The position numbers were made by a program, and so were the translations under genes. A stretch of DNA of 13,383 nucleotides from a virus (lineage: Duplodnaviria; Heunggongvirae; Uroviricota; Caudoviricetes): positions 1 through 13,383 of IMG/VR virus record IMGVR_UViG_2534681933_000013; one strand, written 5' to 3'. Positions 1 through 13,383 of the stretch are shown here, piece after piece (the first letter of the stretch is position 1; each line of letters starts with the position of its first letter). The notes under the pieces were generated by a model. It had not been told where the DNA came from, made no database searches, and saw only the letters and a program-made list of their open reading frames with translations.

Positions 1-777
<777 letters not shown>

Positions 778-856
778 TTCGAACTCCTTAAATTTATTTG
801 AAGGCAATAAAAAAGTAGGATTTATCCGCAATGGAAGCAAGGCATTACAGGCTTAA

Positions 857-876
857 TTTAAATAACAAAATCCTAA
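857..876 (-). promoter_or_regulatory. GAD box (GadE/GadX-type activator site) upstream of gadA
   Basis: The minus strand reads TTAGGATTTTGTTATTTAAA, an exact match to the 20-bp gad box as I recall it. It lies about 80-100 bp upstream of the gadA ATG in an AT-rich region. Confidence 0.6.
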
Positions 877-944
877 GCAGAAAAATGATCTTTTATAATA
901 TAAACATTTAATATGATAATATTAAAAACAGACTTTATTATCGT

Positions 945-977
945 AATAAAAATCGCCCAAACATTCCTGTTCGGGCG
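945..977 (-). terminator. Intrinsic terminator downstream of yhjA
   Basis: Stem CGCCCAAACA (954-963), loop TTCC, stem TGTTCGGGCG (968-977), 9 of 10 pairs. On the minus-strand RNA it is followed by AUUUUUAUU, about 10 nt after the yhjA stop. Confidence 0.6.
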
Positions 978-987
978 ATCAAATTAA

Positions 988-2385
988 TTATTGTTTATCC
1001 TGCATATACGGCGTGTAAACCCCGTTCAGACTGTGCAGGAAAGCTACGATATCATCCACATCCTCCTGCGGCAGCTCTTTGCCTACCTGATAGCGCAACA
1101 TCAGTTTCACCGCCCCGTCCAGCGTCGGCACGTCACCGCGATGGAAGTACGGTGCCGTTAAAGCAACGTTACGTAAACCGGGTACTTTCTGACGCAATTT
1201 ATCACGCTCTTCTTTAGTCACATTCATACGACCAATATCCGCCGCCGTAATTTCCCCAAAGTTAAAGTCTTTTTTCAGCCCCAACGGTTCGAAGGAACGT
1301 CCGCCGAGAATAATTCCACCATGACAAGTTGCACATTTATTATCTTTAAATAATTGATAGCCTTTTTTCTGTTGCGCCGTCAGCGCATTTTCATCCCCAC
1401 GCAACCATTTATCAAATGGGGAATCCGGCGTAATTAATGTTTTCTCAAATTCAGCAATGGCATCAGTAATATTTTCGCCACTGAAACCTTGCGGATAGAC
1501 GTCGAGGAACTGCGCTTTAAGCTGCGGATCTTTTTCCAGCTTAGCAATAATTTCGTCCCAGGATTTTGACGCCATTTCAATCGGGTTCAACGGCGGTCCA
1601 CCAGCCTGATCCTGCAATGTTGCCGCACGACCATCCCAGAACTGCTCAACGTTAAATACTGAGTTAAATACCGTCGGCGCGTTAATCGGCCCAACTGCGC
1701 CACCAACACCAATCGATGTTTTTCTGCCATCGACGCCCCCCGCATTCAACGCATGGCAATGAGCGCATGAAATGGTGCTATCAGCCGATAAACGGGGATC
1801 GTGATACAGCGCAAAGCCCAACGCCACTTTTTGCGCATCGGTAGGCAGTTTTTGCGGGATGGGCTGCACCGGTTCATTGCGATGCTCCGGAGCAGTATCA
1901 TTGCTGGCGTAATATTCCGCGCGCTGTTTTGCAATCCAGGCCAGTATTTCCGCCCGCTCTTCATCACTCACCTTACCCGCCCAGTGTAGCGCGGTATAAC
2001 GCGTTGGCGGCATAGTTTCATACTGCATCACCCATTCAATCTTATTCAGATCGCTTTGCGAAACGGGTTTATCAGCCAGCAGAGCAGCACGCACGGCCTC
2101 GAGGTTAAAAGATTTATATCCAAGCTTAATGTCGTAATCCATCAACTGTTTCGCGCCAGGAATATAATAATAGGCGGGTAATTCTGCCGAAGGCGTGTGG
2201 CAATAGTCGCATCCTTTTTCGCGGAGAAAGCCTAAAACCTTATTATTTTCACTGACAGCAGATGCCTGAACATCGGCCTGTTTACTGCGTTTATTATCGT
2301 GGTACCACACATAACCAGATAACCCTAAATAGCAAATCGCGACGCCAGCCAGGCCGATCGCGGTAATACGTGAGACCATTTTCAT
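988..2385 (-). CDS. yhjA: Membrane-anchored tri-haem cytochrome c peroxidase (465 aa)
   Basis: Complete ORF with an N-terminal hydrophobic segment and three CxxCH haem motifs (CDYCH, CAHCH, CATCH). GAGGGA Shine-Dalgarno upstream of the ATG. Position between gadA and treF matches K-12. Confidence 0.9.
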   Translation of the reverse strand: MKMVSRITAIGLAGVAICYLGLSGYVWYHDNKRSKQADVQASAVSENNKVLGFLREKGCDYCHTPSAELPAYYYIPGAKQLMDYDIKLGYKSFNLEAVRAALLADKPVSQSDLNKIEWVMQYETMPPTRYTALHWAGKVSDEERAEILAWIAKQRAEYYASNDTAPEHRNEPVQPIPQKLPTDAQKVALGFALYHDPRLSADSTISCAHCHALNAGGVDGRKTSIGVGGAVGPINAPTVFNSVFNVEQFWDGRAATLQDQAGGPPLNPIEMASKSWDEIIAKLEKDPQLKAQFLDVYPQGFSGENITDAIAEFEKTLITPDSPFDKWLRGDENALTAQQKKGYQLFKDNKCATCHGGIILGGRSFEPLGLKKDFNFGEITAADIGRMNVTKEERDKLRQKVPGLRNVALTAPYFHRGDVPTLDGAVKLMLRYQVGKELPQEDVDDIVAFLHSLNGVYTPYMQDKQ

Positions 2386-2492
2386 TATTCTTCCCTCACG
2401 GTGGTGAGTTATTGTGACCCAGAAAATTTTCCAGAATGCTGCAAACGTCTCTGCGAGACAAAGCCATCATAAAAAACAGGGAGATACGCTTT

Positions 2493-2506
2493 TTGATAGG
2501 AATCAA
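2493..2506. promoter_or_regulatory. FNR/CRP-family box TTGAT-N4-ATCAA upstream of yhjA
   Basis: TTGATAGGAATCAA matches both FNR half-sites perfectly, centred about 114 bp upstream of the yhjA ATG. yhjA is known to be anaerobically induced via FNR. Confidence 0.55.
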
Positions 2507-2759
2507 TCAATTACATGAATATAAACTATCAATAAGATAGCCTGTGCCTATTACCCAGATCAGGAATGGCATATCATGATTGCGGCAAGAGCAGGATTGA
2601 ATGTTCTGAAAATGAAAAACAACACGAAATCTGTATTTTTATAAATTCCATTGATATTAGTGCGTTATATTTTTTGACAGGTTAATAAACGTGATCCACC
2701 GCACGCTTTGTCGCCCACCAGGCGGAGCGAATGACTACCCTTAAAGAAAAGCCCGATAA

Positions 2760-4439
<1,680 letters not shown>

Positions 4440-4442
4440 TAT

Positions 4443-4480
4443 TTTTACAGCCAGCCGCTAACTTCCTGCTGGCTGTAAAA
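4443..4480. terminator. Hairpin between convergent treF and yhjB, possible terminator
   Basis: Perfect 12-13 bp inverted repeat TTTTACAGCCAGC / GCTGGCTGTAAAA around a 12-nt loop, starting 4 bp after the treF stop. The flanking U-tract is weak, so terminator function is uncertain. Confidence 0.4.
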
Positions 4481-4489
4481 TTATCCTCT

Positions 4490-5092
4490 TCAGGAGGAGA
4501 TATTTAACATCATTGCCGCCTGGGTGCGATTTTTCACTTCCAGACGGCGATACAGGGATTCCAGATGCGCTTTTACCGTTCCGGTACTGATATTCAGCGC
4601 TCTGCCGATCTCCTTATTTGATTCGCCCGCCGCTAACATGGTTAAAATCTCCCGCTGGCGGGCGCTTAACGATTTGAGATCTTTAATGTCCTTTTCCGGC
4701 GTCGTCCGCCAGTCTCCAGGCAGAAACATCATCCCCATCGCCGCACTATTTACCGCCAACGCAAATGTCTCGACGGTTGAATCACGAGGCACAATGGCCA
4801 GCACATTAAAATGGATAACTTCCTGTAACCACCGTTTATTGCAGTCCGTCGCCGTAATTAACACCTTAACCTCAGGAAATTGCACCACGGTTTTTTGCAG
4901 CAACCAGTAGCAAAACTCACCATCCTGATCGCCATCGAGCATAACTAAGGCTTCAGGGTAACTTTCCAGCTTTTGCCATAACTCGTCTGCCTGACTGGCC
5001 CCCTGAATACTCACTCCTGGAATACGCTGCTGTAAACTGATTTTCATTCCATGAATAAATATTGACTGCCTGTCAAACATGACTATTTGCAT
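4490..5092 (-). CDS. yhjB: LuxR/FixJ-type HTH regulator with a degenerate receiver-like N-terminus (200 aa)
   Basis: Complete ORF with a C-terminal LuxR-type HTH (REILTMLAAGESNKEIGRALNISTGTVKAHLESLYRRL). Position and length match K-12 yhjB. Confidence 0.85.
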   Translation of the reverse strand: MQIVMFDRQSIFIHGMKISLQQRIPGVSIQGASQADELWQKLESYPEALVMLDGDQDGEFCYWLLQKTVVQFPEVKVLITATDCNKRWLQEVIHFNVLAIVPRDSTVETFALAVNSAAMGMMFLPGDWRTTPEKDIKDLKSLSARQREILTMLAAGESNKEIGRALNISTGTVKAHLESLYRRLEVKNRTQAAMMLNISS

Positions 5093-5611
5093 AACTGAAT
5101 CTCCACCTGAATACGTTAAAAAGACTTAAGTAGTGGAAGGGTATTACCCGCGAGAAAAAATAAGAATTCGCCATTTGGCGGTGGCCATTCTACAGAGATG
5201 GCGCGTAGAAAATAGTTACCGATATAAATAGTTACAGCTAAACGCCTGAAATTACATGTCGAGGGCACTATTTAAAACAATTTTGAGGATTTCCTTATAT
5301 TGGTGGTTAGTACGCATGCAATTAAAAATGAAATTCCGCGACCACAAGCCAAAATAACAAATGGCAATGAGACAAAAATAAGCACAAATAGCCAATATGT
5401 CCTCTATTCACTTTAAAGGGAATCGCTGAAAAATACGCTCTGTTTAAGGGGATTCACCTTTCTCAGAAAGCTATTCCGCCCTTTTCCTGCTGAGAAATCG
5501 CCACATTCGTCATGACAACATTGTGAAACCCGGCATTAGATGTTAGAAAAAATAATAAACAATGCGATATGCGCGTTACTGTTTCGCTGTGAACAACAAT
5601 CGGTCAAAGAA

Positions 5612-6592
5612 ATGGATAAAATTCACGCAATGCAGTTGTTCATCAAAGTCGCGGAGCTGGAAAGTTTTTCCCGCGCAGCGGATTTCTTTGCTTTGCCAAA
5701 AGGAAGTGTTTCGCGCCAGATACAGGCACTGGAACATCAACTTGGCACCCAGCTTCTCCAGCGCACCACGCGACGGGTCAAACTCACGCCAGAAGGCATG
5801 ACCTATTATCAACGAGCAAAAGATGTGTTGAGTAATCTCAACGAACTGGACGGTCTGTTTCAGCAGGATGCCACCAGTATCAGCGGTAAATTACGCATCG
5901 ACATCCCGCCAGGAATCGCAAAAAGCCTGTTACTGCCGCACCTGTCGGAATTTCTCTATCAGCATCCGGGAATTGAGCTGGAACTGAGTAGCCATGACCG
6001 TCCGGTAGATATTCTTCATGATGGTTTTGATTGCGTGATACGCACTGGCGCGTTACCGGAAGATGGCGTTATCGCCCGTCCCCTCGGCAAACTGACCATG
6101 GTCAACTGTGCCAGTCCGCACTATCTGACGCGCTTTGGTTATCCGCAAAACCCCGACGATCTCACTTCACACGCAATAGTGCGTTATACACCGCACCTGG
6201 GTGTACATCCGTTAGGTTTTGAGGTTGCCAGCGTTAATGGCGTCCAGTGGTTTAAGTCTGGCGGCATGTTGACGGTAAACAGTAGCGAAAACTATCTCGC
6301 CGCCGGTCTTGCCGGTCTGGGGATTATTCAGATCCCGCGCATTGCCGTGCGCGAAGCCCTGCGTGCCGGGCGGCTTATTGAAGTGTTGCCAGGCTACCGT
6401 GCCGAGCCGCTCTCCCTTTCGCTGGTTTATCCGCAGCGTCGGGAGCTTTCCCGGCGTGTAAACCTGTTTATTGATGCGCCGCGCGATAAATGCACTCTAT
6501 CTTGTGCGATAAATGGCATCCACGCGGCGTTTCATTATTTGAAAAAGAATTACATTTCAGGTTGCGTTATGACAGTCCCAACAGGGTGGTAG
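5612..6592 (+). CDS. yhjC: LysR-family transcriptional regulator whose last ~40 codons read into prophage DNA (chimeric C-terminus)
   Basis: N-terminal LysR HTH (MDKIHAMQLFIKVAELESFSRAADFFALPKGSVSRQ). I prefer the ATG at 5612 to the ORF-track start at 5540 because it gives the canonical LysR N-terminus. The ORF is 326 codons versus about 299 expected, and the tail from about 6472 has Mu-end character. Confidence 0.8.
   Translation: MDKIHAMQLFIKVAELESFSRAADFFALPKGSVSRQIQALEHQLGTQLLQRTTRRVKLTPEGMTYYQRAKDVLSNLNELDGLFQQDATSISGKLRIDIPPGIAKSLLLPHLSEFLYQHPGIELELSSHDRPVDILHDGFDCVIRTGALPEDGVIARPLGKLTMVNCASPHYLTRFGYPQNPDDLTSHAIVRYTPHLGVHPLGFEVASVNGVQWFKSGGMLTVNSSENYLAAGLAGLGIIQIPRIAVREALRAGRLIEVLPGYRAEPLSLSLVYPQRRELSRRVNLFIDAPRDKCTLSCAINGIHAAFHYLKKNYISGCVMTVPTGW
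6472..6540. repeat. Prophage terminal region with Mu R1/R2-like transposase-binding repeats
   Basis: TGATGCGCCGCGCGATAAATGC matches 17 of 22 positions of the Mu right end as I recall it (TGAAGCGGCGCACGAAAAACGC). CGATAAATG occurs twice, at 6484-6492 and 6507-6515, 23 bp apart. Confidence 0.55.
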
Positions 6593-7122
6593 CGGTAGAT
6601 CGTTGACAGTCCAATATCATAGATAATTGCCAGCCGCTTTCTGTCATACCCTTTCTGGAGCAATCTTGCGATCTGCTCATGCTGCTCCTTCGTCAGTTTC
6701 GGGCGACGTCCTCCAACTCTCCCTTGTGCTCGCGCAGCAGCCAGTCCTGCCAGCGTGCGCTCAACTATCAGTTCACGCTCCATTTCTGCCAGTGCACCCA
6801 TCATATGAAAAAAGAACCTTCCCATCGGAGTGCTGGTATCGATTGAATCCGTCAGACTGCGAAAATTGACACCTTTTGCGCGTAGCTCTTCTGTGAGAGC
6901 AATGAGGTGTTTCATTCTTCTACCCAACCGATCCAGCTTCCAGACCACCAATGTATCCCCTCTTTTAAGGCACTTTAAAGCGCGTTTCAGGCCTGGTCGT
7001 TCCGACTTGGTTCCGCTCATTTTGTCCTCAAAAATCTGTTCACATCCTGCGCACATTAATGCATTGCGTTGCAAATCTGTGTTTTGGTCATTTGTTGACA
7101 CACGTATGTAGCCAATCAGCAT
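6550..7122 (-). CDS. Serine DNA invertase of the Hin/Gin/Pin/Cin family (190 aa)
   Basis: Translation from the ATG at 7120-7122 reads MLIGYIRVSTNDQNTDLQRNAL...DRLGRRMKHL...SLTDSIDTSTPMGRFFFHMMGALAEMERELIVERTLAGLAAARAQGR, closely resembling Hin and Gin with the catalytic Ser in RVSTNDQ. The 292-aa ORF-track extension upstream is antisense read-through of a fibre cassette. Confidence 0.9.
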   Translation of the reverse strand: MLIGYIRVSTNDQNTDLQRNALMCAGCEQIFEDKMSGTKSERPGLKRALKCLKRGDTLVVWKLDRLGRRMKHLIALTEELRAKGVNFRSLTDSIDTSTPMGRFFFHMMGALAEMERELIVERTLAGLAAARAQGRVGGRRPKLTKEQHEQIARLLQKGYDRKRLAIIYDIGLSTIYRYHPVGTVITQPEM

Positions 7123-7176
7123 TAAAAATACTCCCTTTTGAGTGGTTAAAGTACTGAGATAATGTGGGGAGGATTT

Positions 7177-7202
7177 GAGAGATAAACGTTGGTTTAGGGG
7201 AA
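7177..7202 (+). promoter_or_regulatory. hix/gix-like 26-bp recombination site 1
   Basis: GAGAGATAAACG-TT-GGTTTAGGGGAA. The right half-site is shared with sites 2 and 3, and the site sits at the 5' edge of the conserved fibre crossover region. Confidence 0.55.
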
Positions 7203-7700
7203 GACTCGGCGCTGCCCGTTGGTGTGCCCGTTCCATGGCCCTCAGCCACACCGCCAACGGGGTGGCTGAAATGCAATGGTGCAGCATTTTCTTCTGAAAT
7301 GTATCCCAAACTGGCAAAAGCCTACCCACCAATAAATTACCGGATTTACGGGGAGAATTTATTCGCGGTTGGGATGATGGGCGCGGGGTGGATGCTGGCC
7401 GCGCTTTGCTTAATTGGCAGCCACACACAATTTTGGATCATGCACACTATATGGAATTATGGACCGGGGATGGACTTGCCGCGGGAAGTACACGGGAAGG
7501 AGTAACCCCTGGAATACTGGCTACATACGGGGACGGGGGAATAGTTAAAACAGACGTAACCCGGTTTTAAATGTGCCTTCCTCACTACGTAGCCATTTAG
7601 CTCTCGTAATGTAAAACGGTTTGGTGAAATTAGTGGAAATGTAGGTACAGAAACTCGCCCTCGCAACGTTGCATTTAATTACATCGTAAGAGCCGCATGA
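7203..7700 (+). pseudogene. Silent, degenerate alternative tail-fibre C-terminal cassette 1
   Basis: Begins with the crossover-region peptide (ALPVGVPVPWPSATPPTGWLKCNGAAFSSEMYPKLAKAYP). A 1-nt deficit in a C-run near 7326-7330 shifts the frame, a stop follows at 7568-7570 and several stops at 7590-7627. The conserved C-terminus GNVGTETRPRNVAFNYIVRAA is still encoded at 7635-7697. Confidence 0.6.
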
Positions 7701-7719
7701 AAACGTTGGTTTAGGAGAA
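7694..7719 (+). promoter_or_regulatory. hix/gix-like 26-bp recombination site 2
   Basis: CGCATGAAAACG-TT-GGTTTAGGAGAA, in the same orientation as site 1. It overlaps the stop codon of cassette 1 and immediately precedes cassette 2. Confidence 0.55.
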
Positions 7720-8187
7720 GGTTCTGCACTGCCCGTTGGCGTGCCTGTTCCATGGCCCTTAGCAACACCACCAACGGGCTGGCTGAAATGTAACGGTGCA
7801 GCATTTTCTTCTGAAATGTACCCCAAACTGGCAAAAGCCTACCCCACCAATAAATTACCGGATTTACGCGGAGAATTTATCCGTGGCTGGGATGATGGGC
7901 GAGGAATTGATGCGGCACGCGCTTTATTGAGCATTCAAAGCGGGATGTTGGAAAAACATCGCCATATTGTTGTAGCTAACGATGGATATGACACAAAAGA
8001 TGAATGGGAGTTGGCTACGATTTTCAAAAAAACATATACACAAGGCAGGGGGCTTGATGCCACAAATACAGGAGGGAGTTTGATTCCATCACCAACGCTT
8101 CATTCACGAGGAAGTATTGGTAACACAGGTGGTAGTGAAACCCGCCCCCGCAATATTGCATTTAACTATATCGTGAGGGCGGCTTAG
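7720..8187 (+). CDS. Silent alternative tail-fibre C-terminal cassette 2, promoterless gene segment with an intact frame
   Basis: Open frame from the crossover site through GSALPVGVPVPWPLATPPTGWLKCNGAAFSSEMYPKLAKAYPTNKLPDLRGEFIRGWDDGRG to the family C-terminus ...ETRPRNIAFNYIVRAA. It has no start context of its own and would be expressed only after inversion. Confidence 0.6.
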   Translation, partial: GSALPVGVPVPWPLATPPTGWLKCNGAAFSSEMYPKLAKAYPTNKLPDLRGEFIRGWDDGRGIDAARALLSIQSGMLEKHRHIVVANDGYDTKDEWELATIFKKTYTQGRGLDATNTGGSLIPSPTLHSRGSIGNTGGSETRPRNIAFNYIVRAA

Positions 8188-8193
8188 TTATAT

Positions 8194-8805
8194 TCAACTG
8201 GCTGATGCCAGTGGTATTTCCGGCAAGTTGATATCTGGTGCCATGTTTATATCCATTGCGTTCAGCGCGTCTATATAATCCAGCACGGCATTAAGCCGGG
8301 TGGTTTCTGCCTGCGTCAACTTCCGCCCGGCCCGCAACTTCAACTGAATCAGACTTATGGAATCCATTGCCGCATCAGCCAGTGACTGGCGCTTGGTTTC
8401 TGCCGCTTCTACTGCGGCACGATGTTGTACCTCAGTATCTGTCACCCATTTTTCACCATCCCATTTATCGTATGGTGTTAACGGGGCGATAGTGGTTGTA
8501 TTTTTCGGGTAGTCACCCAGCGCCGTGATTTCTTCGGTGTTTCCCGTGTCAGTGCTATAGACGGTTTCACCACGATGGTCTGGCGCATACTCCCATGAAT
8601 TTAAATCCTCCGAACGGCGAATAGCATAGCCAGATTTATGTGCGCCTGGGGCATCTAAACAGGAATTAGCCGGAATACCAACACCCACAGCAAGATATTC
8701 AGTTGATTCGGAAATATATTCCCGTGTCTCACCATCATAGTTATAAACGACGATGTTTCCTGCCTGTACGGCAATAAGGTCATCATTTAATATCGCGTTA
8801 TTCAT
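8194..8805 (-). CDS. Tail-fibre assembly chaperone (Mu U / lambda Tfa-like, 203 aa)
   Basis: Complete ORF immediately downstream of the fibre gene with a TAATG stop/start overlap, in the position occupied by tfa genes in Mu, P1, e14 and lambda. Call is by position and size; I could not confirm a family motif. Confidence 0.75.
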   Translation of the reverse strand: MNNAILNDDLIAVQAGNIVVYNYDGETREYISESTEYLAVGVGIPANSCLDAPGAHKSGYAIRRSEDLNSWEYAPDHRGETVYSTDTGNTEEITALGDYPKNTTTIAPLTPYDKWDGEKWVTDTEVQHRAAVEAAETKRQSLADAAMDSISLIQLKLRAGRKLTQAETTRLNAVLDYIDALNAMDINMAPDINLPEIPLASAS

Positions 8806-9253
8806 TATGCGGTTCTCACAATATAATTGAAGGCAATATTGCGTGGGCGGTTTTCATTCCCATCTGAGGATTCCGTTCTGTATTGACTGGTAAATCTACC
8901 GTTAATTGCACCTTGCCGGACGGCATTATCTGTCGACAACAGACTATCCCCTCTTTTGTCATTTGGCACCAGTACCGTGTTATCCCACGCATCCCATGAC
9001 CGAATATTATGATAATGACTTCCTGTTAACCACCCCTGCATGCTTAAGATGCCCCTTCCGGCATCCACCCCGCGCCCATCATCCCAGCCACGGATAAATT
9101 CTCCGCGTAAATCCGGTAATTTATTGTTGGGTAGGCCTTTGCCAGATTTGGGTACATTTCAGAAGAAAATGCTGCACCGTTACATTTCAGCCAGCCCGTT
9201 GGTGGTGTTGCTAAGGGCCATGGAACAGGCACGCCAACGGGCAGTGCAGAACC

Positions 9254-9279
9254 TTCTCCTAAACCAAGGTAATTGAGGA
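9254..9279 (-). promoter_or_regulatory. hix/gix-like 26-bp recombination site 3, within the expressed fibre gene
   Basis: Plus strand TTCTCCTAAACC-AA-GGTAATTGAGGA matches about 19 of 26 positions of hixL as I recall it (TTCTTGAAAACCAAGGTTTTTGATAA). It is inverted relative to sites 1 and 2 and lies at the constant/variable boundary. Confidence 0.6.
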
Positions 9280-9439
9280 CTTCTTTTATACTGCCCATAG
9301 CGATAATAGCGCGACCAATAGCTGTAAGGGTTGTCAGTGCTGCGCGGTCTGCTCCGGTAAAATAAGGCAACCGATCTGCTGCAGTGGCAAGTCCTGCCAG
9401 AGCAGTGAGCGTGGCATCTGCCGGTTGTTTTCCGTTTGC

Positions 9440-9990
9440 CAGATCGTATGCAGCCTTGACCGCTTTCGGTGTGGCGGCCAGTATTTCAGACGTGCTGTTG
9501 ATGTCACTGCTCAATTGTACGGTGCCTTTTGCCGTCAGCGAGGCAGCAGGCACTCCCGTTATCTGACTCCACGGGTGAGTGTGGCTGACGGGCGCCTTGC
9601 CGGCTGCAAGGTCGTATGCAGCCTTGACCGCCTTCGGCGTGGCAGCCTCAGTTTCTGATTGACTGTCCGTGGCGCTGCTCAGTTGTACGGTGCCTTTTGC
9701 CGTCAGCGAGGCAGCAGGGACTCCCGTTATCTGACTCCACGGGTGAGTGTGGCTGACGGGCGCCTTGCCGGCTGCAAGGTCGTATGCAGCCTTGACCGCC
9801 TTCGGCGTGGCAGCCTCAGTTTCTGATTGACTGTCCGTGGCGCTGCTCAGTTGTACGGTGCCTTTTGCCGTCAGCGAGGCAGCAGGCACTCCCGTTATCT
9901 GACTCCACGGGTGAGTATGGCTGACGGGGGCCTTGCCGGCAGCCAGGTCATATGCAGCCTTGACGGCCTTTGGTGTGGCGGCCAGCGTTT
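9440..9990 (-). repeat. 168-bp in-frame tandem repeat array inside the tail-fibre gene
   Basis: The string CTGACTCC recurs at 9563, 9731 and 9899. Units 9563-9730 and 9731-9898 are near-identical; the flanking units are partial or diverged. Each unit encodes a 56-aa module. Confidence 0.8.
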
Positions 9991-10252
9991 CAGAGGTGCT
10001 AGTTGGTGGCACTGCTCAGTTGGGTGAACCCCTTAGCTGTCAGTGTCGCGTCCGGGTGGTTACGGGAACGTACGTGTTCAGCCAGTGACTGTGCGGCTTC
10101 CTCCGTTTTTTTCTTCAGCCATTTCGTCCTGTTTGCCAGTTGCCGGGGGGCTCGATTTGATATCCCGTCTGCACCACCCAGAACCGGATCTGATGTCTCC
10201 AGTTGATAGATATTTTCTTCCCACTTTTCTGTTTCATTCAGGTTTCCCATAA

Positions 10253-10831
10253 TCAACTGCTCCCGTGGTTATAACTGCCATCATGGATGGCGGTATTGTT
10301 ATAGCGAATGGCCACAGACTGATACTCCAGGCTGGCCAGATGGCAGCGGGCCGGTGCAAATGCAGCCAGCGTCTGACGCAGCATCGCGGCCTGATCGTTA
10401 GTAATGGGCTGTTTCAGAATAACGCGATAAACTGCCCAGGCGGCTGCATCTCCATGAACAAACAGTCCGTTATAGCTGCGATTGCCGTCGTAACTGAGAC
10501 GACCTGTGCCTTCAATCAGATCCACTTCACCAAAGCCAAAACGGCGGATAACTTCCCGGATTGACCACGGCGTCCCTTTATACCGGTGCAGTTCGATGGC
10601 TGCTTTTATAAGCATGCGGCGAACATCGTCCGATTCCGCCAGCTCCCAGCCATCGCCAGACAGTGAGAACTGCTCGCCCAGCCATGGCAGCGCGGAACTG
10701 TCGACGATATCGACGAGAAAGACCATCAGTACGCTCAGGTCGATGTTATCCAGCCGTCCTGCCAGTCTTCCCAGCGTCCTGAGACTGATATCACCCTCAA
10801 GCGGTGGCGGGAGTTGTAATGGCTCAGTCAT
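10253..10831 (-). CDS. Baseplate/tail protein, P2 gpI / Mu gp48-like (192 aa)
   Basis: Complete ORF immediately upstream of the fibre gene, with overlapping stop and start codons on both sides. Call is by size and position in the baseplate operon. Confidence 0.7.
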   Translation of the reverse strand: MTEPLQLPPPLEGDISLRTLGRLAGRLDNIDLSVLMVFLVDIVDSSALPWLGEQFSLSGDGWELAESDDVRRMLIKAAIELHRYKGTPWSIREVIRRFGFGEVDLIEGTGRLSYDGNRSYNGLFVHGDAAAWAVYRVILKQPITNDQAAMLRQTLAAFAPARCHLASLEYQSVAIRYNNTAIHDGSYNHGSS

Positions 10832-11927
10832 CAGACACTCCAGTCATGTTAAGAGTGATTGCCGTACAGTTTGCCCATTCGTTTTCTGCCACCACCCGCA
10901 GTGCCGGTGTCACCAGTTCAACCTGGTACACCCCGGAAACGGACAATGCACTGATAATCTGGCTGGGGACAATATCGCGCCCCAGCGTGGCGGCACGTGA
11001 TGCCACCCAGTTCTGTATGGCGCTGTTAGCGGCATCTTTTACAGACCTGGCATCCTGATCACGATAGATCGTAATCTTGGCTTCAATGGTGTAATCCACC
11101 TTCACTGGTGTTTTAGCCCGCACTGTATCAGTGAGTGGCCTGACTTTCTCATCAGAGCAGAAACTCTCTACCAGCGTGAGAACACCGCCGTCCGGCAGAC
11201 CGGTACTGAGCAGCGGATACAGATCTACGGTCCCGGGAACCGGGGAAAGCACAGCAACATCGACAATGTTGGGATGGGCCTGCATGGCATGAAAGCGGTA
11301 TGCGCCACGGCTTCCGGCATTGGTGAATGACTCCGGGGCCAGCCTGATACGCTCCCGGAGCCTGTCATCGTCTTCCTGTTCTGAACCGCCGGAACTGGCC
11401 GTCAGATTGCTCACCAGCAGGTCGACGTTATCAATCTCATCGAGTAACTGACTGACCTGCGCAGGTTGCCAGCCGTTACCAGCGGTACCGGGTTCGGTAC
11501 AGGTGGACGTGACATTGACCAGCAGCAATCCGGCCTTCAGTACCACATCTGTATCGGTGGCAAAAATAACGCTGTCGGAAGCGCTGACGCGGGTGCCTGC
11601 CGGGATCAGCACATCAATGGCCAGTGCCTCATCTACGGAGAACTGGAGCGTGGTAGTGGCAGGCTGCGCGGCAAGACGGTATACACCGACCAGTTCACCG
11701 AGGTAATCAATCATCGGCTCACGGGCAAAGGCGACCAGATTCTGCTTTGCTGCCTCCTGTACCGCAACCCTGACCAGCATTTCGCGATAGGCCCACAGAT
11801 CAATCAGCAGACGTTCTGCCTGTGCCGGGTACAGCGTTTTGCCGGTATCCGCTTCATACTTCGCAATCATTTCTGCCGTGATTTTGTCGGCATCGCGTTC
11901 AATAAAATCGGGTTCTGTCAGCGCCAT
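10824..11927 (-). CDS. Baseplate protein, P2 gpJ / Mu gp47-like (367 aa)
   Basis: Complete ORF between the gp25-like and gpI-like genes, overlapping both neighbours by 8-10 nt. Size and position fit the Baseplate_J family. Confidence 0.75.
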   Translation of the reverse strand: MALTEPDFIERDADKITAEMIAKYEADTGKTLYPAQAERLLIDLWAYREMLVRVAVQEAAKQNLVAFAREPMIDYLGELVGVYRLAAQPATTTLQFSVDEALAIDVLIPAGTRVSASDSVIFATDTDVVLKAGLLLVNVTSTCTEPGTAGNGWQPAQVSQLLDEIDNVDLLVSNLTASSGGSEQEDDDRLRERIRLAPESFTNAGSRGAYRFHAMQAHPNIVDVAVLSPVPGTVDLYPLLSTGLPDGGVLTLVESFCSDEKVRPLTDTVRAKTPVKVDYTIEAKITIYRDQDARSVKDAANSAIQNWVASRAATLGRDIVPSQIISALSVSGVYQVELVTPALRVVAENEWANCTAITLNMTGVSDD

Positions 11928-12265
11928 AGCAGCTCCTGAGTCCGGGTCTGTCCGTCTGAGCCTTTCCAGCTCACCCGGAGCGTAAGATGTTCGCCGTCGA
12001 CGGCGGGTTTAACTGACATAAGCTGGCAGCGGGGCTCCCAGCGCCGGATGGCATCGACGGATTCGCGCACCACATGCGGAATGGCCCGGTCTACAGGCCA
12101 GTCGATATAAAGATGCAGATTGCTGCCGAACTCCGGGCGATGCGGGTCGCTGCCGCGGGGAGTCCGCAGGATAATTTGAATCGCCTGCCGGATATCATCC
12201 AGCCCCCGGACAATTTCGCCGGGAGCCTGCAGGGTCGGTTGCCAGAATACTGAGGTTGTTTTCAT
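11918..12265 (-). CDS. Baseplate wedge protein, gp25/gpW-like (115 aa)
   Basis: Contains the gp25-family core IQIILRTPRGSDPHRPEFGSNL. The 115-aa size matches P2 gpW and Mu gp46. Confidence 0.8.
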   Translation of the reverse strand: MKTTSVFWQPTLQAPGEIVRGLDDIRQAIQIILRTPRGSDPHRPEFGSNLHLYIDWPVDRAIPHVVRESVDAIRRWEPRCQLMSVKPAVDGEHLTLRVSWKGSDGQTRTQELLWR

Positions 12266-12283
12266 GGGGGCAGTATTGCCCCC
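12266..12283 (-). other. Stable hairpin abutting the start codon of the gp25-like gene
   Basis: GGGGGCA-GTAT-TGCCCCC, a perfect 7-bp GC-rich stem. On the mRNA it ends directly at the AUG and covers the likely Shine-Dalgarno position. Confidence 0.5.
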
Positions 12284-12319
12284 GTGCGGGAACGCTGATA
12301 TTAAAGGCGTTTAAAAAGC

Positions 12320-12916
12320 TCAGTGGGAGTGGTGGCTGGAGTTTTCGCCATCAGACAACATACTGCCCGTGGCATGGGCATTCCCTTTAATCTCGATATT
12401 GCCATGGATGGTCGCGGTAACACCTTCACCACCAGAACCCGCCATGCCTCCTTCGTAAATCAGCTTACCCCTGACACGCAGATCTCCGGTAAGTTCGGTT
12501 TCCGGTGCGTCAATCGTGGCTTTCTGTGTTTTCAATACCACATCAGCACCACACTCAATGACAATATGCTCAATGCCGCCCCGGATGGTCAGAGTGTGCG
12601 TCTTCCGGTTGTAGCTGTACTCTGCACCATCAGCAAACCGGGTTCCCCGGATATTTTTGTCACTGAACGGTGGTTTATCGACGTCTGAATACACCGCGCC
12701 CAGAATAACACCATCCTCGCCGTTGGCATCGAGCAGTACCTCAACCTGCTCCCCCACGTCAGGGAGCCAGTAATCTTTGTTATCCTGGGTATTGCGCTGC
12801 AGCACGTTAAGCCAGTTTGTGCGCAGGTTATCGCATTCAGGCAGACGAACGCGGGCCTGAACCCTGTCGGCATCAACGGCACTGACCGTACCGACCTGAC
12901 GAGTGACACCAGTCAT
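12320..12916 (-). CDS. Baseplate spike/assembly protein, gpV / Mu gp45-like (198 aa)
   Basis: Complete ORF with a gpV-like N-terminal segment (WLPDVGEQVEVLL) and a glycine-rich C-terminal part. Its start overlaps the upstream gene's stop (ATGA). Confidence 0.75.
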   Translation of the reverse strand: MTGVTRQVGTVSAVDADRVQARVRLPECDNLRTNWLNVLQRNTQDNKDYWLPDVGEQVEVLLDANGEDGVILGAVYSDVDKPPFSDKNIRGTRFADGAEYSYNRKTHTLTIRGGIEHIVIECGADVVLKTQKATIDAPETELTGDLRVRGKLIYEGGMAGSGGEGVTATIHGNIEIKGNAHATGSMLSDGENSSHHSH

Positions 12917-13383
12917 TTTTTCTTCTCCTTAATCACCGTCGATGTACTGCCATCCGGGTGATAAACCGTGAGTTTCTGAGTTTTTTGTTTTTTCCCTCTT
13001 GTGACTGGCCCCCGTGCCACTTCCAGCTCTGTGGTGTAGCCGCTGTTACGGTCAAACGCATGGCGGGCAGTGGTTATGAGCCATGGCCCGGATAACTGCC
13101 CAAAACCCACCAGTTCAATTTTGTTGCCTGCTGTCAGTTGAGGTGTTCCCGTCAGCGTCAGGGAGCCGTTCTGCTGGTATTCGTTATGTCTGGCCAGTGC
13201 TGAATCCGCTTTAATCCGGGCACTGTCCGGGTCGCTGACGCGGCTGTTAACTTTAAGTGAGTCAGCGCTGGTAACCTTACCACCTTTGAGCTTTTTGTCG
13301 CTTTCACGGGTACCACCATCAGCTTCGTAGACGATCAGTTTTTTACTGCTGCTTTTCTGGTGTTTTACCTTTGCAGATTTATA
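12913..13383 (-). CDS. Phage baseplate/tail protein, C-terminal 156 codons; possibly the gpD / Mu gp44 hub, by synteny only
   Basis: The minus-strand frame is open from the window end to the stop at 12913-12915 (ends ...LTVYHPDGSTSTVIKEKKK). The ORF track shows only its last 65 codons from an internal GTG. Product assignment is positional. Confidence 0.45.
   Translation of the reverse strand, partial: YKSAKVKHQKSSSKKLIVYEADGGTRESDKKLKGGKVTSADSLKVNSRVSDPDSARIKADSALARHNEYQQNGSLTLTGTPQLTAGNKIELVGFGQLSGPWLITTARHAFDRNSGYTTELEVARGPVTRGKKQKTQKLTVYHPDGSTSTVIKEKKK

Follow-up and report, generated by a model that had tools for sequence, protein, structure and literature searches.

Frameshifts in the invertible tail-fibre cassettes of a Mu-like prophage of Escherichia coli DEC5C are probably draft-assembly errors

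Do the frameshifts in the tail-fibre cassettes of a Mu-like prophage of Escherichia coli DEC5C (O55:H7) belong to the genome of that strain, or to its assembly? The prophage lies on contig AIFS01000042.1 of draft assembly GCA_000249535.2, the whole of which (13,383 bp) was analysed here and is referred to as the window. It carries three related fibre cassettes, and a first-pass annotation reported that cassette 2 is in frame and that cassettes 1 and 3 are each one base short – an observation that the deposited sequence bears out. The same annotation placed both losses at one position of one C-run, and offered gene conversion, an old shared mutation, a slippage-prone tract, or a systematic homopolymer sequencing error as possible causes.

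The left part of the window (1-6471) is chromosomal, carrying gadA', ccp, treF, yhjB and rcdB (also known as yhjC), and matches closed O55:H7 genomes (e.g. RM12579 and TB182A) at 100.0 % identity, in a single gap-free piece of equal length. The remainder (6472-13383) comes from a Mu-like transposable prophage and represents its right-hand part, which starts with TG at 6472, is truncated by the contig end, and interrupts the LysR-family gene rcdB (window 6467-6480); a chimeric ORF at this junction (5540-6592) runs into the prophage. Neither 5,426 complete E. coli genomes nor an exact-protein index yielded a second copy of the rcdB insertion. Elsewhere in E. coli the same prophage end adjoins the unrelated genes zntB, rstB, yeiB and nfrB, a symporter gene, and an EAL-domain gene, and the insertion sites of this prophage are random across different hosts. 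Among named phages, the closest is Escherichia phage PhiKM (PQ738613.1; filed under Bcepmuvirus, with GemA and Mor/C-type genes), which shares 98 % identity across the baseplate genes and the constant part of the fibre. At its left end the contig begins within gadA, of which a near-identical paralogue, gadB, exists, and it ends (13383) inside a gpD-like tail gene of the prophage, where repeats are not known; these two end-points hint that coverage was low, or that DEC5C has a second related element.

The fibre genes of this prophage form an invertible module. Gene order on the minus strand is baseplate genes (V, W, J, and I-like), the tail-fibre gene, cassette 3, and the tail-fibre assembly gene. 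The constant part of the fibre gene (9277-10250, minus strand, with its ATG at 10250) is joined to cassette 3 (8805-9279, minus), which has an interrupted Collar domain, and is followed by the assembly gene (8194-8805, minus), the only one for all three cassettes, whose 203-aa product occurs exactly in many prophages. Two silent cassettes lie on the plus strand: cassette 2 (7694-8187), which is intact, with a Collar domain and a 152-aa ORF at 7729-8187, and cassette 1 (7177-7700, from crossover site to stop codon), whose intact orthologue has 171 aa. Next to these is a 190-aa serine DNA invertase gene (6550-7122, minus; Resolvase, E = 8e-51, plus HTH_7), which is itself intact.

Three crossover sites, which we take to resemble hix/gix sites, share a common right half-site, GGTTTAGGRGAA, around a TT core. 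They are located at the start of cassette 1 (7177-7202, plus; GAGAGATAAACG TT GGTTTAGGGGAA), at the start of cassette 2 (7694-7719, plus; CGCATGAAAACG TT GGTTTAGGAGAA), and where the constant part meets cassette 3 (9254-9279, minus; TCCTCAATTACC TT GGTTTAGGAGAA), the last in inverted orientation with respect to the others. The three cassettes have in common a conserved 5′ part of approximately 210 bp, 88-93 % alike between them; the corresponding inverted repeat formed by 7703-7847 and 9126-9270 is 97 % complementary. A related prophage (L011) has a different arrangement, in which the constant part is joined to cassette 1, cassette 3 lies with the assembly gene, and cassette 2 is inverted, two inversions away from the order in the window. 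Because relatives carry the same cassettes in other arrangements, the region appears to be a functional fibre module of multiple-inversion type, akin to Mu G, P1 C, or p15B Min. The system is of a known kind – an invertible fibre module with three cassettes and one assembly gene, in a Mu-like prophage – with several isomers across E. coli.

Several further observations concern the parts of this module. Three fibre cassettes per single assembly gene (four elsewhere) are seen in the window (7177-9279), in L011, and in loci L025, L008, and L012, and in some isomers the assembly gene points away from the fibre operon. The identical 203-aa assembly protein is found in Mu-like and P2-like prophages alike, and O55:H7 strain CB9615 has paralogous cassettes, 96 % identical, in a P2-like prophage. 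The constant part of the fibre holds 3.3 copies of a 168-nt shaft repeat (9437-9983), equivalent to 56 aa, and related fibres of 375, 431, 487, and 543 aa differ in 56-aa steps, such that the copy number of the shaft repeat appears to vary among them.

Invertases of the Gin/Cin/Pin/Hin family drive the invertible fibre segments of Mu (G), P1 (C), and e14 (P), and the multiple-inversion Min system of p15B. The window has the hallmarks in common with these: an adjoining 190-aa Resolvase/HTH_7 invertase, hix-like sites at the boundary of constant and variable parts with isomers across genomes, and alternative C-terminal cassettes with a Collar domain together with a tail-fibre assembly gene. Mu and P1, however, have two cassettes, each with its own U or U′ gene, whereas the window has three cassettes and one assembly gene; and unlike the Mu type there is no mom-like gene after the invertase, the prophage end following directly. 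By analogy, the module would be related most closely to the Min system of plasmid p15B. The frameshifts are not part of such a system.

At the affected position, cassette 2 has the intact version, TACCCCACCAATAAA (7840-7854, plus), read in frame as TAC CCC ACC AAT AAA (YPTNK). The cassette 1 version, TACCCACCAATAAA (7323-7336, plus), is missing one C of the CCCC in the intact orthologue, and the cassette 3 version, TACCCAACAATAAA (9120-9133, minus; contig text at 9128-9120, AACAATAAA), has a left half of cassette-3 type (TACCCAAC) and a right half of cassette-2 type (AATAAA), which leaves it one base short overall. Each of the two short versions measures 37 nt, compared with 38 nt in every homologue. 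Following the loss in cassette 3, the reading frame stops at a TAA (9046-9044) located 26 codons past the ACA codon, the C-terminal ORF (KLPDLRGEF...IVRTA*) lies in a different frame, and the Pfam Collar domain is broken at profile position 33 of 57, whereas intact homologues match positions 1-57.

Alignment of six cassette 5′ parts shows that two allele types occur naturally at this position, one in cassettes 1 and 2 (TAC CCC ACC AAT AAA, YPTNK) and one of cassette-3 type (TAC CCA ACG TTA AAA, YPTLK), and that aligning the two requires a pair of 1-nt gaps, which compensate each other and are separated by 10 nt. The CCC of cassette 3 is native to its allele type, being present as TA-CCCAACGTTAAAA in L011 and in an intact, nearly identical prophage (L004) considered below. 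Cassette 3 keeps the native TACCCAAC and continues with the cassette-2-type AATAAATTACCGG, its right side reading AAT AAA TTA CCG G; it is short because the downstream GTTAAAA has been exchanged for the cassette-2-type AATAAA, and an allele switch between the two gap columns costs one base. The lesions of cassettes 1 and 3 are therefore not the same lesion – the first lost a C from CCCC and the second is an allele chimera – and the proposal of a common position in a common C-run does not hold.

The chimera at 9120-9133 is a small part of a longer tract (9099-9260, minus) over which the 5′ part of cassette 3 is a mosaic, with 12 substitutions and one deletion relative to L004. The tract is of cassette-2 type from the first polymorphic base past the crossover site, then of types 3, 2, 3, and 2 in turn, before it reverts to cassette-3 type in the variable part, amounting to at least five type switches in 160 nt, in patches on a scale of 2-20 nt. 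Gene conversion, as first suggested, is right as to form, cassette 3 being a mosaic of cassettes 2 and 3, but cassettes 1 and 3 have no one lesion in common; the mosaic may equally have arisen in the assembler.

The L004 prophage (GCA_045618685.1) is the same prophage at another chromosomal site, with 99.67 % identity over window positions 6472-13383 and, unlike L011, in the isomer found in the window. Its fibre ORFs are all intact, with a fibre of 481 aa and silent cassettes of 171 and 152 aa, and it reads TACCCCACCAATAAA at the cassette 1 site, with the alignment gap falling at window 7324. In both this prophage and PhiKM the fibre ORFs are uninterrupted, in contrast to the window. There are 23 differences between the window and L004, seven single-base indels and 16 substitutions, and all seven indels fall in the fibre gene or its cassettes. 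Five are in cassette 1, namely the missing C at 7324 and additional T's at 7557, 7565, 7590, and 7596; the others are the one-base loss in cassette 3 (approximately 9119-9122) and one additional base in the constant part, at 10001. Apart from the difference at 10001, all (22/23) are within 7204-9260. The mosaic tract accounts for 12 of the 16 substitutions, and outside it there are six indels versus four substitutions. No differences from L004 were found in the invertase, the tail-fibre assembly gene, the variable part of cassette 3, or approximately 3.4 kb of baseplate genes.

The difference at 10001 – an extra A on the plus strand – creates an in-frame TAG (9999-10001, minus) that ends the fibre ORF after codon 83, halting the 'expressed' fibre 294 codons ahead of the cassette-3 frameshift. 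The first-pass annotation, in calling this fibre expressed, overlooked the upstream TAG. Removal of one base at 10001 and addition of one at the cassette-3 lesion restores a 481-aa protein, 478/481 identical to the L004 fibre. The two changes cancel, giving a fibre span of 1,446 nt (8805-10250) equal to that of the L004 gene, with the first 83 codons sharing a frame with the C-terminal ORF and the middle 294 codons out of frame; the five indels in cassette 1 sum to +3. The cancelling indels and the +3 sum are probably coincidental.

Position 10001 is a place at which other assemblies fail. Eight contigs from seven other assemblies end, and one scaffold is gapped (L014-L022), within 2 nt of it, and because of these contig ends and this gap it appears to be a module or repeat boundary where assemblers break. 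One candidate for such a repeat, the resemblance of the fibre shaft to the H gene of a P2-like prophage, was rejected, the two having 75-80 % similarity, which does not account for a break at 10001 in DEC5C itself.

The four added T's of the cassette 1 variable part (7557-7598, plus), each a single base, all lie within 40 nt, two having the form ACG[T]A and two extending short T runs, and neither a biological nor a technical mechanism accounts for them well.

Are any of these lesions shared with other genomes? The cassette-1 variable part is present in 113 complete E. coli genomes, and the best matches listed all span 277 nt, compared with 281 nt in the window, and so are without the four extra T's. 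At the position of the one-base losses, 121 other homologous cassette copies (50 loci, 27 alleles) are all 38 nt and in frame, with no out-of-frame homologue among them (0/121). The run is of merely three or four C's, and with no length variation in any of the 121 copies a slippage-prone tract is not a tenable cause. Searches of viral, metagenome, and species-representative genome collections gave no exact match to the 24-mers spanning the lesions, whereas the intact 25-mer is found in 28 viral contigs. For the 5′ part of cassette 3 that bears the lesion, no complete E. coli genome has a match of >95 %. Across 153 billion gene positions, this contig alone encodes the 322-aa product of the frameshift and the product of the rcdB::prophage junction, and there is no second copy of the frameshifted products in the exact-protein index. 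The lesions are also absent from L004, L011, DLI.5a, and E. coli E30. In the comparison with orthologous Mu-like fibres that the first-pass annotation proposed, the orthologues are intact, and the lesions of cassettes 1 and 3 differ in kind. Exact look-up returned no independent DEC5C assembly, in Logan or elsewhere, and a full-text literature search for DEC5C returned no paper; a closed-genome study of O55:H7 covers DEC5A, B, D, and E.

These searches bear directly on the suggestion of an old mutation, in which the lesion would be shared by descent, or have spread between cassettes, as part of a decaying prophage lineage. The gaps of both cassettes do fall in the same alignment column, as such a history would predict, but in the cassette-3-type allele that gap is native and compensated. 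Moreover, the lesions are missing from a 99.67 % identical prophage, from 121 homologous copies, from three sequence collections, and from complete E. coli genomes – in short, from all of the other data searched – and the differences are clustered rather than spread, without the excess of substitutions over indels outside the mosaic tract that decay would leave. An inherited pseudogene is thus highly improbable.

Programmed recoding, in which a -1 shift of the ribosome on or close to the C-run would yield the full-length fibre, with two products or an on/off switch, is similarly far-fetched. There is an in-phase C CCA AAT heptamer (9146-9152, minus) 21 nt upstream of the cassette-3 lesion, at which a -1 shift would enter the C-terminal frame, and there is a superficial parallel to the programmed -1 frameshifting of lambda G/GT and other tail-chaperone pairs, in that a phage tail-region gene has two frames that could be joined by a -1 shift. 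However, the heptamer is also present in intact orthologues that need no shift, there is no slippery heptamer at either lesion, and the downstream fold is ordinary (MFE -34 versus a shuffle mean of -30.5 kcal/mol; z = -1.08), with 29 of 200 shuffles at least as stable. The two-frame layout is not conserved, none of the 121 homologues being frameshifted and both L004 and L011 being intact. The shift would occur inside the Collar domain, reading past the upstream TAG would take a +1 event of its own at AAC TAG, a sequence not known as a shift site, and cassette 1, with its five lesions, is silent. The gene also differs from the lambda G/GT type in coding for the fibre tip rather than a tail assembly chaperone, in having neither a conserved slippery site nor conservation in relatives, and in carrying extra lesions.

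The distribution of the differences is informative. Cassettes 1 and 2 have eight differences from L004 in 1,001 nt, compared with one in the 5,749 nt of prophage outside these cassettes and the mosaic tract (Fisher p = 1.8e-6), and the probability of eight or more is 2.6e-6 even with the background rate set to its 95 % upper bound. Ordinary mutation since divergence cannot yield this clustering, whatever the selection, because the clustering is significant, selection is unable to raise the neutral rate, and natural spectra are not indel-dominated.

More localized events in vivo must also be considered. If the lesions are real and private to DEC5C, then out-of-register conversion between cassettes 2 and 3, together with local error-prone formation of indels, would have left a dead tail fibre. 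Exchange between cassettes does occur naturally: cassette 1 of E. coli E30 carries a 5′ part of cassette-3 type, seen as a single clean in-frame tract (E30 locus L002, 6695-7198, versus window 7187-7420). The allele types are locally out of register, such that a crossover there would shift the frame, and the very accurate consensus elsewhere argues against a generally unreliable assembler. Nonetheless, the exchange seen in nature is one long clean tract and not patches of 2-20 nt, natural spectra do not show indels in excess of substitutions, and no known mechanism inserts four T's into 40 nt. The seven indels and 16 substitutions lie in a stretch of 2.8 kb, while the other 4 kb of the prophage has nothing but one extra base (p ~2e-6), and none of the lesions is common to any second sequence. 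In addition, because its site is occupied in no other genome and it is otherwise identical to an intact phage, the prophage would be a recent arrival with a working fibre. We therefore consider real, strain-private lesions unlikely, though far less so than recoding or an inherited pseudogene. Narrower still, and quite doubtful, is the specific proposal of a real out-of-register conversion between YPTLK and YPTNK cassettes with indel-prone repair confined to the invertible segment; were it true, a prophage could rapidly shut off its host recognition through homologous exchange among its fibre cassettes.

We favour a technical origin. The lesions are private, clustered, indel-dominated, and absent from an almost identical intact prophage, and the frameshifts are likely to be consensus or assembly errors in the invertible, paralogous sequence of a draft contig rather than features of the DEC5C genome. 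The evidence for this reading is indirect, coming from a comparison of consensus sequences; the assembler mechanism and the sequencing chemistry we infer. That the lesions occur in one draft assembly and are absent from near-identical sequences is what would be expected of an artefact.

A plausible sequence of events begins with the invertase, which – as judged from Mu, P1, and p15B – would hold a culture as a mixture of isomers, and reads from different cassettes or isomers could then be piled together. The cassette-3-type TA-CCCAACGTTAAAA and the cassette-1/2-type TACCCCACCAAT-AAA both code for YPT(L/N)K, with their nucleotides locally out of register; a consensus called column by column would therefore drop one base on changing from one allele to the other within this 10-nt stretch. 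Such a consensus could account for cassette 3 and, less certainly, for the three-C call in cassette 1. The mosaic in cassette 3 flips to cassette-2 type exactly at the crossover site, where isomer reads begin to differ, and a fine mosaic is the outcome expected of mixed isomer reads; the presence of cassette-2-type sequence beside the crossover site suggests that the constant part was mostly joined to cassette 2. The extra base at 10001 would be a join error, as it coincides with the break point of many other assemblers.

In 2012 the same sequencing centre used 454 Titanium 3-kb paired ends and Celera 6.0 (PMC3491183), which is circumstantial evidence as regards DEC5C. Data of this kind involve overlap and column-consensus assembly, prone to indels. 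The window resembles known draft-genome frameshift artefacts, which stem from collapsed or mixed paralogous repeats and 454-type indel errors, in that its lesions are private, indel-dominated, and in repeated or invertible sequence, and in that one of them is exactly where other assemblies break. It differs from them in that its homopolymers elsewhere are correct and that four of the seven indels are in sequence unrepeated within the element.

These differences are part of a broader set of observations that run counter to an artefact. Elsewhere the consensus is flawless, including all 165 homopolymer runs of at least four bases outside the fibre region, which agree with closed genomes or the intact prophage (165/165), and generic 454 error does not fit. 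The four extra T's are in the non-repeated variable part of cassette 1, and derive neither from isomer mixing nor from mixing with CB9615-type sequence. The 5′ part of cassette 2 is clean, although simple isomer mixing should affect it as well. As to location at the repeat or paralogue boundaries where assemblers fail, 10001 lies at an assembly break point, such a location is plausible for the two lesions in the cassette 5′ parts, and the four T's lie elsewhere, in the variable part of cassette 1.

Other technical causes were tried and rejected. A collapse with P2-like cassettes of the CB9615 kind is not supported, as the window follows L004 at nearly all sites where L004 and CB9615 differ, and cross-prophage mixing fails because none of the indels is a CB9615 allele. 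Generic homopolymer error is excluded by the correctness of all other homopolymers. The first-pass annotation was thus right to raise a systematic sequencing error, inasmuch as an artefact is the best explanation, but wrong to attribute it to homopolymers; because those outside the fibre region are all correct, the problem is specific to invertible, paralogous fibre sequence.

If the lesions should nevertheless prove real, they would represent merely a dead tail fibre in one strain-specific Mu-like prophage of E. coli DEC5C, an unremarkable inactivation. For invertible multi-cassette fibre modules more generally, the finding is a caution that frameshifts in draft genomes should not be interpreted as pseudogenes, phase variation, or recoding before they have been compared with intact, near-identical sequences or with the reads.
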